Positions 25,562-53,788 of a stretch of DNA of 64,000 nt are shown here, one piece after another. Source of the DNA: Escherichia coli 042 (GTDB lineage: Bacteria; Pseudomonadota; Gammaproteobacteria; Enterobacterales; Enterobacteriaceae); NCBI RefSeq assembly GCF_000027125.1, contig NC_017626.1; one strand, 5' to 3'. The notes beneath the pieces are model-generated. The model was not told where the DNA came from. It worked only from the letters and a program-made list of their open reading frames with translations, and did not search any database. The translations under genes and the position numbers were made by a program. Each line of letters begins with the position of its first letter. Position 1 is the stretch's first letter.

Positions 25562-27148
25562 TCAGCTTTTCAGCCGCCGCCAGAACGTCGTCCGGCTGAT
25601 GCCTAAATAATTCGCCGCTGCTGTTTTATCGCCATTAAATTTCTCCAGTGCCTGTAGTGGTGTCAGCAAGGATGGGGCGGGAATTTTCGCCGACTCGCGC
25701 GCCAGTTCCGGCAGTAGCAGCTGCAAAAATTGCGGCGTTAAATCCGGCGTCGGTTCCACACTTAAAAACAGCGCCAGTCGCTCCATCATATTGCGCAGTT
25801 CACGAATATTGCCCGGCCAGTCGTAGTGCACCAGCACGGTTTCGCTTGCCTGTAATCCCTGGCGTAATGCGGCAGAAAACGGGGCGGAGAGCGCCGCCAG
25901 AGACACTTTCAAAAAGCTTTCCGCCAGCGGCAGAATATCCGTCACCCGCTCGCGCAGTGGTGGCAATTGCAGACGCAAAATACTCAGCCGATAAAACAGA
26001 TCACGGCGAAACTGCCCTTGCCGCATATCTTCTTCCAGATTGCAGTGAGTGGCGCTAATGACTCGCACATCCACCGGAACAGGCTGATGCCCGCCGACGC
26101 GGGTGACCTCTTTTTCTTCCAGCACCCGTAACAGGCGAGTCTGCAAAGGTAGCGGCATTTCGCCAATCTCATCCAGAAACAGCGTACCACCGTGGGCGAT
26201 TTCGAACAGCCCGGCGCGACCTCCGCGTCGCGAGCCGGTAAACGCCCCTTCCTCATAGCCAAACAGCTCTGCCTCCAGCAGCGATTCGGCAATCGCCCCG
26301 CAGTTGACGGCAACAAACGGATGTGACTTTTTGCCCTGTCGCGCATCGTGGCGGGCAAAATATTCCCGATGAATCGCCTGGGCCGCCAGCTCTTTGCCCG
26401 TCCCCGTTTCCCCTTCAATCAACACCGCTGCACTGGAGCGGGCATACAGCAAAATAGTCTGCCGTACCTGTTCCATCTGTGGTGATTGACCGAGCATATC
26501 GCCCAGCACGTAACGAGTACGCTGGGCGTTACGGGTGGCATCGTGAGTGTTATGGCGTAACGACATGCGCGTCATATCCAGCGCATCGCTGAATGCCTGG
26601 CGCACGGTGGCGGCGGAATAGATAAAAATTCCGGTCATTCCGGCTTCTTCTGCCAAATCGGTAATCAGCCCTGCGCCGACCACCGCTTCGGTGCCGTTAG
26701 CTTTCAGCTCGTTAATCTGCCCGCGTGCGTCTTCCTCTGTAATGTAGCTACGTTGGTCGAGGCGCAAATTAAAGGTTTTTTGAAACGCCACCAGCGCTGG
26801 AATGGTTTCCTGATAAGTGACAACGCCGATAGAAGAGGTGAGTTTTCCGGCTTTTGCCAGTGCCTGCAACACATCGTAGCCGCTCGGTTTAATCAAAATA
26901 ACTGGCACTGACAGGCGGCTTTTAAGATATGCGCCGTTAGAGCCAGCAGCGATGATGGCGTCACAGCGTTCGCTTGCCAGTTTCTTGCGGATGTAGGTCA
27001 CCGCTTTTTCAAAGCCAAGCTGGATAGGGGTAATGTTCGCCAGATGATCAAACTCGAGGCTGATATCGCGAAACAGCTCGAACAGGCGCGTCACCGATAC
27101 CGTCCAGATAACCGGTTTGTCGTCATTCAGCCGTGGTGGATGTGCCAT
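25562..27148 (-). CDS. prpR: sigma-54-dependent transcriptional activator of the prp operon
   Basis: ORF 25562..27160 begins at TTG; start set at ATG 27148 ([11 protein letters not shown]); AAA+ sigma-54 interaction domain ([13 protein letters not shown]) and C-terminal HTH. Confidence 0.9.
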
Positions 27149-27324
27149 AGCGCACCGCAAAGTTAAGAAACTGAATATTGGGTTTAGTCTTGTTTCATAA
27201 TTGTTGCAATGAAACGCGGTGAAACATTGCCTGAAACGTTAACTGAAACGCATATTTGCGGATTACTTCATGACTTTATCTCTAACAAATTGAAATAAAA
27301 CATTTAATTTTATTCAGGCAATTG

Positions 27325-27339
27325 TGGCACACCCCTTGC
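27325..27339 (+). promoter_or_regulatory. sigma-54 promoter (-24/-12) of prpBCDE
   Basis: TGGCAC-acccc-TTGC (GG-N10-GC) 48 bp upstream of the prpB ATG, downstream of the divergent prpR. Confidence 0.8.
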
Positions 27340-27386
27340 TTTGTCTTTATTAACGCAAATAACAAGTTGATAACAAAGGATGGGCT

Positions 27387-28277
27387 ATGTCTCTACACTC
27401 TCCAGGTAAAGCGTTTCGCGCTGCACTGACTAAAGAAAATCCATTGCAGATTGTTGGCACCATCAACGCTAACCATGCGCTGTTGGCGCAGCGTGCCGGA
27501 TATCAGGCGATTTATCTTTCCGGCGGTGGCGTGGCGGCAGGTTCGCTGGGGCTGCCCGATCTCGGTATTTCTACCCTTGATGACGTGCTGACCGACATTC
27601 GCCGTATCACCGACGTCTGCTCGCTGCCGCTGCTGGTAGATGCGGATATCGGTTTTGGTTCTTCTGCTTTTAACGTTGCGCGCACCGTGAAATCGATGAT
27701 TAAAGCCGGTGCGGCGGGATTGCATATTGAAGATCAGGTTGGTGCGAAACGCTGCGGCCATCGCCCGAATAAAGCGATCGTCTCGAAAGAGGAGATGGTG
27801 GATCGGATCCGCGCGGCGGTGGATGCGAAAACCGATCCTGATTTTGTGATCATGGCGCGCACCGATGCGCTGGCGGTTGAAGGGCTGGATGCGGCGATCG
27901 AGCGTGCGCGGGCCTATGTTGAAGCGGGTGCCGAGATGTTGTTCCCGGAGGCGATTACCGAACTCGCTATGTACCGCCAGTTTGCCGATGCGGTGCAGGT
28001 GCCAATCCTCGCCAACATTACCGAATTTGGCGCAACACCGCTGTTTACTACCGATGAATTACGCAGTGCCCATGTTGCAATGGCGCTGTACCCGCTTTCA
28101 GCGTTTCGCGCCATGAACCGCGCCGCCGAACATGTCTACAACGTCCTGCGTCAGGAAGGCACGCAGAAAAGCGTCATCGACACCATGCAGACCCGCAACG
28201 AACTGTACGAAAGCATCAACTATTACCAGTACGAAGAGAAGCTCGACGACCTGTTTGCCCGTAGCCAGGCGAAATAA
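27387..28277 (+). CDS. prpB: 2-methylisocitrate lyase
   Basis: 296-aa ORF, isocitrate-lyase/PEP-mutase superfamily. Confidence 0.92.
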
Positions 28278-28298
28278 AAAACGCCCGTTGGTTGTATT

Positions 28299-28770
28299 CG
28301 ACAACCGATGCCTGATGCGCCGCTGACGCGGCTTATCAGGCCTACGGGATGAACTGAACTGTAGGTCGGATAAGACGCATAGCGTCGCATCCGACAACCG
28401 ATGCCTGATGCGCCGCTGACGCGGCTTATCAGGCCTACGGGGTGAACTGAACTGTAGGTCGGATAAGACGCATAGCGTCGCATCCGACAACCGATGCCTG
28501 ATGCGCCGCTGACGCGGCTTATCAGGCCTACGGGGCGTGCTGAACTGTAGGTCGGATAAGACGTATGGCGTCGCATCCGACAACCGATGCCTGATGCGCC
28601 GCTGACGCGACTTATCAGGCCTACGGGGTGAACTGAACTGTAGGTCGGATAAGACGCATGGCGTCGCATCCGACAACCGATGCCTGATGCGACGCTGACG
28701 CGGCTTATCAGGCCTGCGGGGTGAACTGAACTGTAGGTCGGATAAGACGCATAGCGTCGCATCCGACAAC
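28299..28770. repeat. tandem REP/BIME array, about five copies of a 93-bp unit
   Basis: cgacaaccgatgcctgatgcgccgctgacgcggcttatcaggcctacgg...gtaggtcggataagacgcatagcgtcgcatc recurs at 28299, 28392, 28485, 28578 and 28671. Confidence 0.9.
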
Positions 28771-28809
28771 AATCTCGACCCTACAAATGATAACAATGAC
28801 GAGGACAAT

Positions 28810-29979
28810 ATGAGCGACACAACGATCCTGCAAAACAGTACCCATGTCATTAAACCGAAAAAATCTGTGGCACTTTCTGGCGTTCCGGCGGGCAATACGG
28901 CGCTCTGCACCGTGGGTAAAAGTGGCAATGACTTGCATTACCGTGGTTACGATATTATTGATCTGGCGGAACATTGCGAATTTGAAGAAGTGGCGCATCT
29001 GCTGATCCACGGCAAACTGCCGACCCGTGACGAACTCGCCGCTTACAAAACAAAACTGAAAGCCCTGCGCGGTTTACCGGCTAACGTGCGTACCGTGCTG
29101 GAAGCCTTACCGGCGGCGTCGCACCCGATGGATGTCATGCGCACAGGCGTTTCCGCACTCGGTTGCACGCTGCCAGAAAAAGAAGGGCACACTGTCTCTG
29201 GCGCGCGGGATATTGCCGACAAACTGTTGGCGTCGCTTAGCTCGATTCTTCTCTACTGGTATCACTACAGCCACAACGGCGAACGCATCCAGCCAGAAAC
29301 CGATGACGACTCCATCGGCGGTCACTTCCTGCATCTGCTGCATGGCGAAAAGCCGTCGCAAAGCTGGGAAAAGGCGATGCATATTTCGCTGGTGCTGTAC
29401 GCCGAACACGAGTTTAACGCCTCCACCTTTACCAGCCGGGTGATTGCGGGCACCGGCTCTGATATGTATTCCGCGATTATTGGCGCGATTGGCGCACTGC
29501 GCGGGCCGAAACACGGCGGGGCGAATGAAGTGTCGCTGGAGATCCAACAACGCTACGAAACGCCGGACGAAGCCGAAGCCGATATCCGCAAGCGCGTGGA
29601 AAACAGAGAAGTGGTCATTGGTTTTGGTCATCCGGTTTACACCATCGCCGACCCGCGTCATCAGGTGATCAAACGCGTGGCGAAGCAGCTCTCGCAGGAA
29701 GGCGGTTCGCTGAAGATGTACAACATCGCCGATCGCCTGGAAACGGTGATGTGGGAGAGCAAAAAGATGTTCCCCAATCTCGACTGGTTCTCCGCTGTTT
29801 CCTACAACATGATGGGCGTTCCCACCGAGATGTTCACCCCACTGTTTGTTATCGCCCGCGTCACCGGCTGGGCGGCGCACATTATCGAACAACGTCAGGA
29901 CAACAAAATTATCCGTCCTTCCGCCAATTATGTTGGACCGGAAGACCGCCAGTTTGTCGCGCTGGATAAGCGCCAGTAA
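28810..29979 (+). CDS. prpC: 2-methylcitrate synthase
   Basis: 389-aa ORF of the citrate synthase family. Confidence 0.92.
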
Positions 29980-30012
29980 ACCTCTACGAATAACAATAAG
30001 GAAACGTACCCA

Positions 30013-31464
30013 ATGTCAGCTCAAATCAACAACATCCGCCCGGAATTTGATCGTGAAATCGTTGATATCGTCGATTACGTCATGAACTACGAAATTAGCT
30101 CTAAAGTGGCCTACGACACCGCACATTACTGCCTGCTCGACACTCTCGGCTGCGGTCTTGAAGCTCTCGAATACCCGGCCTGTAAAAAACTGCTGGGGCC
30201 AATTGTCCCCGGCACTGTCGTACCTAACGGCGTGCGCGTCCCCGGAACTCAGTTCCAGCTCGACCCCGTCCAGGCGGCATTTAACATTGGCGCGATGATC
30301 CGCTGGCTTGATTTCAACGATACCTGGCTGGCGGCGGAGTGGGGCCATCCTTCCGACAACCTCGGCGGCATTCTGGCAACGGCGGACTGGCTTTCGCGCA
30401 ACGCGGTCGCCAGCGGCAAAGCGCCGTTGACCATGAAACAGGTGCTGACCGCAATGATCAAAGCCCATGAAATTCAGGGCTGCATCGCGCTGGAAAACTC
30501 CTTTAACCGCGTCGGCCTCGACCACGTTCTGTTAGTGAAAGTGGCTTCCACCGCCGTGGTCGCCGAAATGCTCGGCCTGACCCGCGAGGAAATTCTCAAC
30601 GCCGTTTCGCTGGCGTGGGTGGACGGTCAGTCGCTGCGCACCTATCGCCATGCGCCGAACACCGGCACGCGTAAATCCTGGGCGGCGGGCGATGCCACTT
30701 CCCGCGCGGTACGTCTGGCACTGATGGCGAAAACGGGCGAAATGGGTTACCCGTCAGCCCTGACTGCGCCTGTGTGGGGCTTCTACGACGTCTCCTTCAA
30801 AGGTGAGTCGTTCCGCTTCCAGCGCCCGTACGGTTCTTACGTGATGGAAAATGTGCTGTTCAAAATCTCCTTCCCGGCGGAGTTCCACTCCCAGACGGCA
30901 GTTGAAGCAGCGATGACGCTCTATGAACAGATGCAGGCAGCAGGCAAAACGGCGGCAGATATCGAAAAAGTGACCATTCGCACCCACGAAGCCTGTATTC
31001 GCATCATCGACAAAAAAGGACCGCTCAATAACCCGGCAGACCGCGATCACTGCATTCAGTACATGGTGGCGATCCCGCTGCTGTTCGGACGCTTAACGGC
31101 GGCAGATTACGAGGACAACGTTGCGCAAGATAAACGCATCGACGCCCTGCGCGAGAAGATCAATTGCTTTGAAGATCCGGCATTTACCGCTGACTACCAC
31201 GACCCGGAAAAACGTGCCATCGCCAATGCCATAACCCTTGAGTTCACCGACGGTACGCGATTTGAAGAAGTGGTGGTGGAGTACCCAATTGGTCATGCTC
31301 GCCGCCGTCAGGATGGCATTCCGAAACTGGTCGATAAATTCAAAATCAATCTCGCGCGCCAGTTCCCGACTCGCCAACAGCAGCGCATTCTGGAGGTTTC
31401 TCTCGACAGAGCTCGCCTGGAACAGATGCCGGTCAATGAGTATCTCGACCTGTACGTCATTTAA
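30013..31464 (+). CDS. prpD: 2-methylcitrate dehydratase
   Basis: 483-aa ORF of the MmgE/PrpD family. Confidence 0.92.
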
Positions 31465-31503
31465 GCAAACAGCGGTAAGGCGTAAGTTCAACAGGAGAGC
31501 ATT

Positions 31504-33390
31504 ATGTCTTTTAGCGAATTTTATCAGCGTTCGATTAACGAACCGGAGAAGTTCTGGGCCGAGCAGGCCCGGCGTATTGACTGGCAGACGCCCTTTACGC
31601 AAACGCTCGATCACAGCAATCCGCCGTTTGCCCGTTGGTTTTGTGAAGGCCGAACCAACTTGTGTCACAACGCTATCGACCGCTGGCTGGAGAAACAGCC
31701 AGAGGCGCTGGCGCTGATTGCCGTCTCTTCGGAAACAGAAGAAGAGCGCACCTTTACCTTCCGCCAGTTACATGACGAAGTGAATGCGGTGGCCTCAATG
31801 CTGCGCTCGCTGGGTGTGCAGCGCGGCGATCGGGTGCTGGTGTATATGCCGATGATTGCCGAAGCACATATTACTCTGCTGGCTTGCGCGCGCATTGGCG
31901 CTATTCACTCGGTGGTGTTTGGGGGATTTGCCTCGCACAGCGTGGCGGCGCGAATTGATGATGCTAAACCGGTGCTGATTGTCTCGGCTGATGCCGGAGC
32001 GCGCGGTGGCAAAATCATTCCCTATAAAAAATTGCTCGACGATGCGATAAGTCAGGCGCAGCACCAGCCACGCCATGTTTTGCTGGTGGATCGCGGGCTG
32101 GCGAAAATGGCACGCGTCAGCGGGCGGGATGTCGATTTCGCGTCGTTGCGCCATCAACACATCGGCGCGCGGGTACCGGTGGCGTGGCTGGAATCCAACG
32201 AAACCTCCTGCATTCTCTACACCTCCGGCACGACCGGCAAACCTAAAGGCGTGCAGCGTGACGTTGGCGGATATGCGGTGGCGCTGGCGACCTCGATGGA
32301 CACCATTTTTGGCGGCAAAGCGGGCGGTGTGTTCTTTTGTGCTTCGGATATCGGCTGGGTGGTGGGGCATTCGTATATCGTCTACGCGCCGCTGCTGGCG
32401 GGGATGGCGACTATCGTTTACGAAGGATTACCGACCTGGCCGGACTGCGGCGTGTGGTGGAAAATCGTCGAGAAATATCAGGTTAGCCGGATGTTCTCAG
32501 CGCCGACCGCCATTCGCGTGCTGAAAAAATTCCCTACCGCTGAAATTCGCAAACACGATCTCTCGTCGCTGGAAGTGCTCTATCTGGCTGGAGAACCGCT
32601 GGACGAGCCGACCGCCAGTTGGGTGAGCAATACGCTGGATGTGCCAGTGATCGACAATTACTGGCAGACCGAATCCGGCTGGCCGATTATGGCGATTGCT
32701 CGCGGTCTGGACGACAGGCCGACGCGTCTGGGTAGCCCCGGCGTGCCGATGTATGGCTATAACGTGCAGTTGCTTAATGAAGTCACCGGCGAACCGTGTG
32801 GCGTCAACGAGAAAGGGATGCTGGTGGTGGAAGGGCCATTGCCGCCGGGGTGTATTCAGACCATTTGGGGCGACGACGACCGCTTTGTGAAGACGTACTG
32901 GTCGCTGTTTTCCCGTCCGGTGTACGCCACTTTTGACTGGGGTATCCGCGATGCTGACGGTTATCACTTTATTCTCGGGCGCACTGACGATGTGATTAAC
33001 GTTGCCGGGCATCGGCTGGGGACGCGCGAGATTGAAGAGAGTATCTCCAGTCATCCGGGCGTTGCCGAAGTGGCGGTGGTTGGGGTGAAAGATGCGCTGA
33101 AAGGGCAGGTGGCGGTGGCGTTTGTCATTCCGAAAGAGAGCGACAGTCTGGAAGACCGTGAGGTGGCGCACTCGCAAGAGAAGGCGATTATGGCGCTGGT
33201 GGACAGCCAGATTGGCAACTTTGGCCGCCCGGCGCACGTCTGGTTTGTCTCGCAATTGCCGAAAACGCGATCCGGAAAAATGCTGCGCCGCACGATCCAG
33301 GCGATTTGCGAAGGACGCGATCCTGGGGATCTGACGACCATTGATGATCCTGCGTCGTTGGATCAGATCCGCCAGGCGATGGAAGAGTAA
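31504..33390 (+). CDS. prpE: propionyl-CoA synthetase
   Basis: 628-aa ORF with AMP-binding motif YTSGTTGKPKG. Confidence 0.92.
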   Translation: MSFSEFYQRSINEPEKFWAEQARRIDWQTPFTQTLDHSNPPFARWFCEGRTNLCHNAIDRWLEKQPEALALIAVSSETEEERTFTFRQLHDEVNAVASMLRSLGVQRGDRVLVYMPMIAEAHITLLACARIGAIHSVVFGGFASHSVAARIDDAKPVLIVSADAGARGGKIIPYKKLLDDAISQAQHQPRHVLLVDRGLAKMARVSGRDVDFASLRHQHIGARVPVAWLESNETSCILYTSGTTGKPKGVQRDVGGYAVALATSMDTIFGGKAGGVFFCASDIGWVVGHSYIVYAPLLAGMATIVYEGLPTWPDCGVWWKIVEKYQVSRMFSAPTAIRVLKKFPTAEIRKHDLSSLEVLYLAGEPLDEPTASWVSNTLDVPVIDNYWQTESGWPIMAIARGLDDRPTRLGSPGVPMYGYNVQLLNEVTGEPCGVNEKGMLVVEGPLPPGCIQTIWGDDDRFVKTYWSLFSRPVYATFDWGIRDADGYHFILGRTDDVINVAGHRLGTREIEESISSHPGVAEVAVVGVKDALKGQVAVAFVIPKESDSLEDREVAHSQEKAIMALVDSQIGNFGRPAHVWFVSQLPKTRSGKMLRRTIQAICEGRDPGDLTTIDDPASLDQIRQAMEE

Positions 33391-40108: not shown

Positions 40109-40720
40109 TTAAACTGAAGGCTCAACTTTATAATCTTTGTAATAATAGTGCTTATCCCGGTCGTTTATTTCGCGAATAACCCGACAAGGAACGCCAGCAG
40201 CCACGACGTTTGGTGGAATGTCTTTTATGACGACACTACCCGCGCCAATAACAGAATTATCCCCGATGGTGACGCCTGGATTAATGACCACATGACTTCC
40301 GATCCAGACGTTATTGCCAATCGTTATCGGAAAAGAGTACATCTCACCGTTTTTTCTTAATTCATGGTGTACCGGGTGTCCCGTAACGGAAAGAGTAACG
40401 TTGGGTGCAATCAGTACGTTATCACCGATTGTTACCGTGTAGTCATCGACAATGGTTAAATTAAAATTTGCATAAAAATTGCGGCCTATATGGATGTTGG
40501 AACCGTAAGAGAAATAGACGGGAGGTTCTACCCAGGCGTTTTCCCCTACCGTGGCAAACATTTCTTTAATCAGGCTTTCTCTTTTTTCAACTTCTGATGG
40601 ATGCGAGTGATTAAACTCATACATTAACGTTTTCCCACGAAGTCTTTTTTCCGGTAAGCCTTCGCACATATCGGTAAATAGCTTGCCTGCTTTTATTCTT
40701 TCGGTCATTGGCATGTTCAT
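40109..40720 (-). CDS. lacA: galactoside O-acetyltransferase
   Basis: ORF 40109..40771 extends into a REP element; start set at ATG 40720 (MNMPMTERI, 203 aa); hexapeptide-repeat acetyltransferase. Confidence 0.92.
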   Translation of the reverse strand: MNMPMTERIKAGKLFTDMCEGLPEKRLRGKTLMYEFNHSHPSEVEKRESLIKEMFATVGENAWVEPPVYFSYGSNIHIGRNFYANFNLTIVDDYTVTIGDNVLIAPNVTLSVTGHPVHHELRKNGEMYSFPITIGNNVWIGSHVVINPGVTIGDNSVIGAGSVVIKDIPPNVVAAGVPCRVIREINDRDKHYYYKDYKVEPSV

Positions 40721-40746
40721 TGCGATCATTCCGTTATGATATGTTG

Positions 40747-40776
40747 GTCGGATAAGGCGCTCGCGCCGCATCCGAC
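40747..40776. repeat. REP palindrome between lacY and lacA
   Basis: gtcggataaggcgctcgcgccgcatccgac. Confidence 0.8.
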
Positions 40777-53741: not shown

Positions 53742-53788
53742 TATTGACTGCCGAGAACGTGCATTTTGTATGCCCATCCCAGCACGAC

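Follow-up and report, generated by a model that had tools for sequence, protein, structure and literature searches.

The 238-bp region between prpR and prpB in a 64,000-nucleotide stretch of the chromosome of Escherichia coli 042, referred to here as the window, almost certainly represents the divergent regulatory region already known for the 2-methylcitrate pathway of propionate catabolism, which is controlled by sigma-54 and PrpR. The evidence supports assignment of the motif at 27324–27340 as the sigma-54 (−24/−12) promoter of prpBCDE, and of the divergent gene as that of PrpR, its enhancer-binding activator. Observed directly were the motif and its surroundings, the integrity of the PrpR domains, identity to K-12, and conservation across 80 species. 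Element positions are given below relative to 27351, a transcription start which, like the IHF site, is predicted from sequence.

25562–27148, minus strand: prpR, 528 amino acids, divergent from prpB, with a PrpR_N sensor, an AAA+ sigma-54 interaction domain, and HTH_8.
27168–27185, unstranded: palindrome AAACTGAATATTGGGTTT (inverted repeat I1), 20 nt from the prpR start codon.
27192–27215, unstranded: distal dyad GTTTCAT-N10-ATGAAAC (−159 to −136; inverted repeat I9, 100% complementary).
27220–27251, plus strand: three further direct TGAAAC copies (at 27220, 27232, and 27244; −131 to −100; repeat family D2), the putative proximal enhancer.
27283–27295, minus strand: TTTCAATTTGTTA, a candidate site for bending by IHF that departs from WATCAANNNNTTR at one position (−68 to −56).
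27324–27340, plus strand: sigma-54 promoter GTGGCACACCCCTTGCT, with GG at 27326–27327 (−25/−24) and GC at 27338–27339 (−13/−12).
27351, plus strand: transcription start as predicted, 12 nt beyond the C of the GC doublet, giving a 36-nt leader to prpB.
27360–27372, minus strand: perfect IHF core consensus TATCAACTTGTTA (+10 to +22), inside the conserved leader block TAACAAGTTGATAACAA.
27376–27380, plus strand: Shine-Dalgarno sequence AAGGA, as read from the letters, 6 nt ahead of the prpB ATG.
27387–33390, plus strand: prpBCDE operon (prpB 27387–28277, prpC 28810–29979, prpD 30013–31464, prpE 31504–33390).

Genes in this part of the E. coli chromosome follow the order yahN, yahO, prpR (reverse), prpB, prpC, prpD, prpE, and codB, with prpR-prpBCDE arranged as in the K-12 annotation. 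PrpR, PrpB (methylisocitrate lyase), PrpC (2-methylcitrate synthase), PrpD (2-methylcitrate dehydratase), and PrpE (propionate-CoA ligase) all score above their NCBIfam equivalog cut-offs; rpoN, ihfA/B, and crp are all located outside the window. The preliminary description had set the left edge of the control region at 27161, a boundary that has to be moved: the TTG at 27160 is a mere ORF-finder start, and prpR begins at the ATG at 27148 (528 amino acids, as in K-12 and RefSeq), so the intergenic region spans 27149–27386 rather than 27161–27386.

The prpB-prpC spacer (28278–28809) measures 532 bp, versus 439 bp in K-12, and at 28299–28770 contains 5.1 tandem copies, 96% alike, of a 93-bp REP/BIME-type unit. 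Four of these copies match Rfam naRNA4 (RF02564) above the gathering score on the plus strand. That the matches represent REP325 itself, the source of naRNA4, was rejected, as REP325 sits between yjdM and yjdN; the array is paralogous in sequence to REP325 and would be transcribed from the sigma-54 promoter.

The match to TGGCAC-N5-TTGC (GG-N10-GC), which had been described as lying 48 nt before prpB, is exact at 27325–27339 on the plus strand. It comprises TGGCAC (27325–27330), the spacer ACCCC (27331–27335), and TTGC (27336–27339), with a gap of exactly 10 nt between GG and GC (27326–27339). Counted from the end of the motif at 27339 to the prpB ATG at 27387 the distance is indeed 48, with 47 nt in between. 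The site is intergenic, is in sense orientation toward prpB, and precedes a short leader (36 nt, predicted), an arrangement expected of a sigma-54 promoter. The start was placed by the rule of PMC4591121: the centre of the motif is at 27332, and 19 nt are counted downstream from it. The predicted +1 position is T in the window and C in K-12.

Across the whole window, the motif is within chance expectation. TGGCAC-N5-TTGC has no second exact match in 64 kb, and 22 of 100 dinucleotide shuffles yield at least one; six one-mismatch matches were observed versus 7.3 expected. For scoring, a leave-one-out matrix was trained on the intergenic-sense sigma-54 sites that Bonocora et al. mapped by ChIP-seq (PMC4591121), with the prpB site set aside and 41 others retained. 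The prpB site reaches 15.15 bits (training sites 8.4–21.7, median 15.84) and ranks second in the window, and the top score, 15.22 bits, is equaled or exceeded by the best match in 127 of 200 random windows. Window-wide significance was accordingly rejected for both the exact pattern and the matrix score. The published score of the K-12 site, designated OS01, is 9.47, low in a range of 4.5–14.1 (PMC4591121). The word “textbook” in the preliminary description thus fits the GG-N10-GC core; taken over all 17 positions, the site is no more than average for a validated one. When the 238-bp intergenic region is shuffled, a sense-strand match scoring as high as the prpB site turns up in 14 of 20,000 trials. 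Because the motif is within chance window-wide, the case for the promoter has to be made from its context and its conservation.

The highest-scoring sigma-54-like 17-mer in the window, TTGGCATGTTCATTGCG (40708–40724, plus strand, 15.22 bits), lies antisense at the 5′ end of a lacA-like ORF (40109–40771, minus strand), beside lacY. It is absent from the high-stringency K-12 ChIP-seq sigma-54 sites and is probably a chance match. A separate 17-mer, TGGGCATACAAAATGCA (53760–53776, minus strand), is identical to the K-12 sigma-54 ChIP-seq site OA01, an intergenic antisense site whose nearest downstream gene is given as mhpR, at a distance of 6,496 nt. This would be a second experimentally bound sigma-54 site in the window.

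The reading of the opposite-strand gene as an AAA+ sigma-54 activator is supported, as prpR is full length with domains and motifs intact. PrpR scores 1005 bits against the NCBIfam PrpR equivalog (cut-off 703) and lies above the cut-offs of both equivalogs, NF011953 and TIGR02329. Pfam identifies PF06506 (PrpR_N), PF00158 (Sigma54_activat), and PF02954 (HTH_8), together with AAA_lid. The protein carries Walker A (GETGTGKE), Walker B (LFLDEIGE), and a sigma-54 contact loop, GAFTGS, which is a natural variant of the GAFTGA-type loop and is identical in K-12. Identity to K-12 PrpR is 98%, and the ten substitutions are all outside the Walker A/B and GAFTGS motifs. For Salmonella, 2-methylcitrate is reported as the PrpR co-activator (PMC4987338 and PMC5566544), and the PrpR enhancer consensus is given as CGTTTCATGAAACG (PMC4987338).

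Upstream of the promoter, five GTTTCA/TGAAAC hexamers fall within 58 bp (−159 to −102), where 0.04 would be expected per 60 bp. The remaining 37 such hexamers in the window are isolated, making the five-hexamer cluster unique in the window, and the cluster occupies the interval ∼100–160 nt upstream of the start in which a sigma-54 enhancer is expected. Half-sites of the distal dyad match the published Salmonella enhancer CGTTTCATGAAACG. The left part of the dyad (TGTTTCAT, TGTT, CAA) is invariant in 13 of 13 enteric sequences and its right arm, TGAAAC, is kept in 11 of 13; the dyad at 27192–27215 is likely a PrpR binding site. The proximal segment, 27220–27251, aligns with the contiguous dyad CGTTTCATGAAACG carried by Salmonella arizonae and Citrobacter, of which Escherichia keeps the right half only and has instead four direct TGAAAC repeats, spaced 10–12 nt apart. 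Because the contiguous Salmonella dyad is missing in Escherichia, the hexamers assigned here to PrpR in E. coli are predicted contacts.

Between enhancer and promoter, the usual though not universal place for IHF, the candidate site at 27283–27295 has CAA-N4-TTA core columns that are conserved in the enteric alignment, and an IHF bend may form there. The sole perfect IHF consensus of the control region, at 27360–27372, lies downstream of the predicted start; the exact core consensus has three matches in 64 kb, with 2.65 expected, and this is one of them. It is embedded in the leader block TAACAAGTTGATAACAA, which is invariant in Escherichia, Citrobacter, and Kluyvera and is a 78% direct copy of 27283–27300 (−68 to −51). 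A leader hairpin was considered as a structured element and rejected, as 27347–27400 folds at −5.6 kcal/mol (z = −0.32 versus shuffles). An Rfam search of the intergenic region returned no family at E ≤1, which leaves the conserved leader unexplained by any riboswitch or small RNA. The block could be an undescribed second IHF site or another regulatory site.

It appears unlikely that the Escherichia control region is functionally unlike that of Salmonella, with a direct TGAAAC array in place of the dyad and the leader TAACAAGTTGATAACAA with its IHF consensus as an addition. Shared by Salmonella enterica and the window are the distal dyad GTTTCAT-N10-ATGAAAC, the divergent prpR, and an equally distant sigma-54 motif, which reads TGGCATAGCCTTTGCTTT in LT2 and lies 49 nt before the ATG in subspecies arizonae and diarizonae. 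The Salmonella prp system is reported, for the pPro expression vectors (PMC5566544), as ∼3-fold stronger than that of E. coli, and the missing contiguous dyad in Escherichia may relate to this weaker E. coli system.

Toward prpR, the palindrome AAACTGAATATTGGGTTT at 27168–27185 is conserved as a block in Escherichia, Citrobacter, and Kluyvera, and a K-12 SNP (27172) falls inside it; it is possibly part of the prpR promoter or an operator. Scanning of 27050–27450 for sigma-70-like promoters and terminators found none, and for that reason the prpR promoter could not be placed. A CRP consensus with ≤3 mismatches was likewise not found inside the intergenic region, the only match (27141–27156) overlapping the ATG of prpR, and a position could therefore not be assigned to the CRP site that Lee et al. 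2005 describe.

Conservation of the promoter was surveyed by scanning one genome per species with PrpB, yielding 80 loci from Escherichia to the beta-proteobacteria, and by taking the best sense-strand matrix match in the 300 bp upstream of prpB at each locus. All 80 other species have a sense-strand sigma-54 motif there (12.4–20.9 bits, median 16.7), at 42–90 nt from the prpB ATG in 79 of them and at 190 nt in the remaining one (L071). In control scans, no antisense strand of the 80 loci scores above 10.5 bits, and a score of 12.4 bits is attained by 0.6% of shuffles. A divergent prpR is found within 2.5 kb at 66 of the 80 loci, and GTTTCA/TGAAAC hexamer clusters occur 115–300 nt before the prpB ATG in nearly all. 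GTTTCA-N10-14-TGAAAC, mostly with N11–12, is present in 57 of 80 species. Most Citrobacter, Salmonella arizonae, and a few other species carry the contiguous palindrome GTTTCATGAAAC, which is absent from Escherichia.

Loci of Janthinobacterium (L042, L044–L047, L053–L055, L060, L062, L065, and L082), Massilia (L084), and Xenorhabdus kozodoii (L029) have sigma-54 motifs of 17.5–19.8 bits and keep the GTTTCA/TGAAAC cluster upstream of prpB. No enhancer-binding-protein gene was found at these loci within ≤2.5 kb on each side of prpB, and prpR must therefore be encoded elsewhere in these genomes.

Published experiments bear on the same 17-mer or its ortholog. In K-12, ChIP-seq site OS01 is bound by sigma-54 in vivo and is letter-for-letter GTGGCACACCCCTTGCT, with a fold-above-threshold value of 17 and, in Table 1 of that study, a predicted start 36 nt before prpB (PMC4591121). 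EcoCyc at the time of that study listed the promoter as predicted only. In vitro, genomic SELEX with purified RpoN holoenzyme likewise gives a peak in the K-12 prpR/prpB spacer (PMC8743547). In Salmonella Typhimurium, prpBCDE was one of four operons listed as experimentally sigma-54-regulated before the study of PMC3844500, in which the promoter TGGCATAGCCTTTGCTTT was bound in ChIP-chip and prpBCDE expression was 45-fold higher in wild type than in ΔrpoN with a promiscuous activator supplied. PMC4987338 and PMC5566544 state that Salmonella prpBCDE expression needs PrpR, sigma-54, and IHF, and those articles together with PMC10101121 that cAMP-CRP acts on both prpR and prpBCDE. The results of Palacios and Escalante-Semerena 2000/2004 on Salmonella are cited as relayed by PMC4987338 and PMC3844500; findings of Lee et al. 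2005 and of Lee and Keasling 2008 are likewise given as relayed by later articles (PMC5566544 and PMC10101121 among them). For E. coli prpB, direct rpoN-mutant expression data were not found in the articles consulted.

Binding of sigma-54 does not prove promoter function, as Bonocora et al. caution (PMC4591121), and many intragenic sites may form closed complexes only. By this account, the motif would be a closed-complex site with no role in prpBCDE transcription, and another promoter, e.g., a CRP-dependent sigma-70 promoter, would drive the operon; CRP is known to affect prpBCDE expression, and motifs scoring as high as this one arise by chance in 64 kb. Such an arrangement is nevertheless very improbable, given the negative sigma-70 scan described above, retention of the site in position and strand in 80 of 80 species, a dedicated activator gene beside it in 66, and the dependence of the Salmonella operon on rpoN (45-fold; PMC3844500) and on prpR. 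In addition, plasmid pPro24 is built on the prpR-PprpB cassette of E. coli, which functions there as a system inducible by propionate (PMC5566544 and PMC10101121). Identity of the site with K-12, Salmonella genetics, and conservation thus support the initial assignment of a prpBCDE sigma-54 promoter facing a divergent activator gene. They argue strongly that the operon is RpoN-dependent in E. coli 042; that the sequence “confirms” such dependence, as first put forward, is too strong a wording for what is deduced from identity with studied strains and conservation.

Within E. coli, 233 of 238 intergenic positions match K-12, with SNPs at 27172, 27266, 27297, 27315, and 27351. None of these is in the −24/−12 core or any GTTTCA/TGAAAC hexamer, and one is at the predicted +1, where the rare T of this lineage might modulate output. 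A comparison of five E. coli lineages shows no variation in TGGCAC, TTGC, or any part of the enhancer, and variation in the N5 spacer and the AT-rich middle. A 351-bp query across the promoter region has a match in 5,219 of 5,426 complete E. coli genomes, with prpR and prpB as the features under the match, and lacks one in 207. The allele of the window is uncommon, since only 11 E. coli records are at least 99% identical to the query; strain BEC1-S17-ESBL-09 is identical to the window over 27100–27450. In E. coli RM8082 (L004, NZ_CP043825.1 348349–354391), a natural deletion has taken out prpR and the 5′ part of prpB along with the entire control region between them, such that yahO directly abuts a shortened prpB. 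That the promoter is intact and the circuit nonetheless weakened or altered in 042, through the five SNPs (one of them at +1), the ten changes in PrpR, or damage to rpoN or ihf, which lie outside the window, is suggested by the uncommon allele and by natural loss as in RM8082 and the 207 genomes with no match, but is highly improbable, with core and hexamers free of SNPs, PrpR motifs intact, and the four enzymes intact and above equivalog cut-offs.

Expression of prpBCDE from the sigma-54 promoter under PrpR control would proceed as follows. RNA polymerase containing sigma-54 (RpoN) would bind GTGGCACACCCCTTGCT to form a closed complex unable to initiate alone, and PrpR, encoded divergently, would bind the GTTTCA/TGAAAC half-sites at approximately −159 to −100 (27192–27251). 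Propionate would be converted by PrpE and PrpC to 2-methylcitrate, which would activate PrpR through the N-terminal PrpR_N domain, and the AAA+ domain would then oligomerise. A bend introduced by IHF, probably at 27283–27295, would bring PrpR to the polymerase, and ATP hydrolysis by PrpR would open the promoter. Transcription would begin near 27351 and run through prpBCDE, with cAMP-CRP adding catabolite control.

This arrangement is closest to K-12 PprpB (OS01, the pPro24 cassette), with which the window shares the 17-mer, the five hexamers, their spacing, the leader, and the gene order, and from which it differs by the five SNPs, the ten PrpR substitutions, and an additional REP unit of 93 bp in the prpB-prpC spacer. 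It is also reminiscent of atoDAEB, controlled by AtoC, which has a nearly identical core (CTGGCACTCCCCTTGCT) and a leader of 35 nt versus 36 nt (PMC4591121). Both operons share the logic of a distant enhancer, DNA looping, and an AAA+ activator; they have different activators, ligands, and enhancer sequences. AtoC belongs to the two-component response regulators; unlike AtoC, PrpR senses 2-methylcitrate directly through PrpR_N.

The prpBCDE sigma-54 promoter is thus real, ordinary, and already known, and adds no new biology. Through it, propionate catabolism in E. coli is tied to RpoN, PrpR, and 2-methylcitrate, and it underlies the propionate-inducible plasmid pPro24 and propionate biosensors. 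The added value is modest and comparative: Escherichia lacks the contiguous dyad by which the PrpR enhancer of Salmonella is defined in the literature, and the −24/−12 element and the GTTTCA/TGAAAC cluster are conserved from Escherichia to the Oxalobacteraceae.
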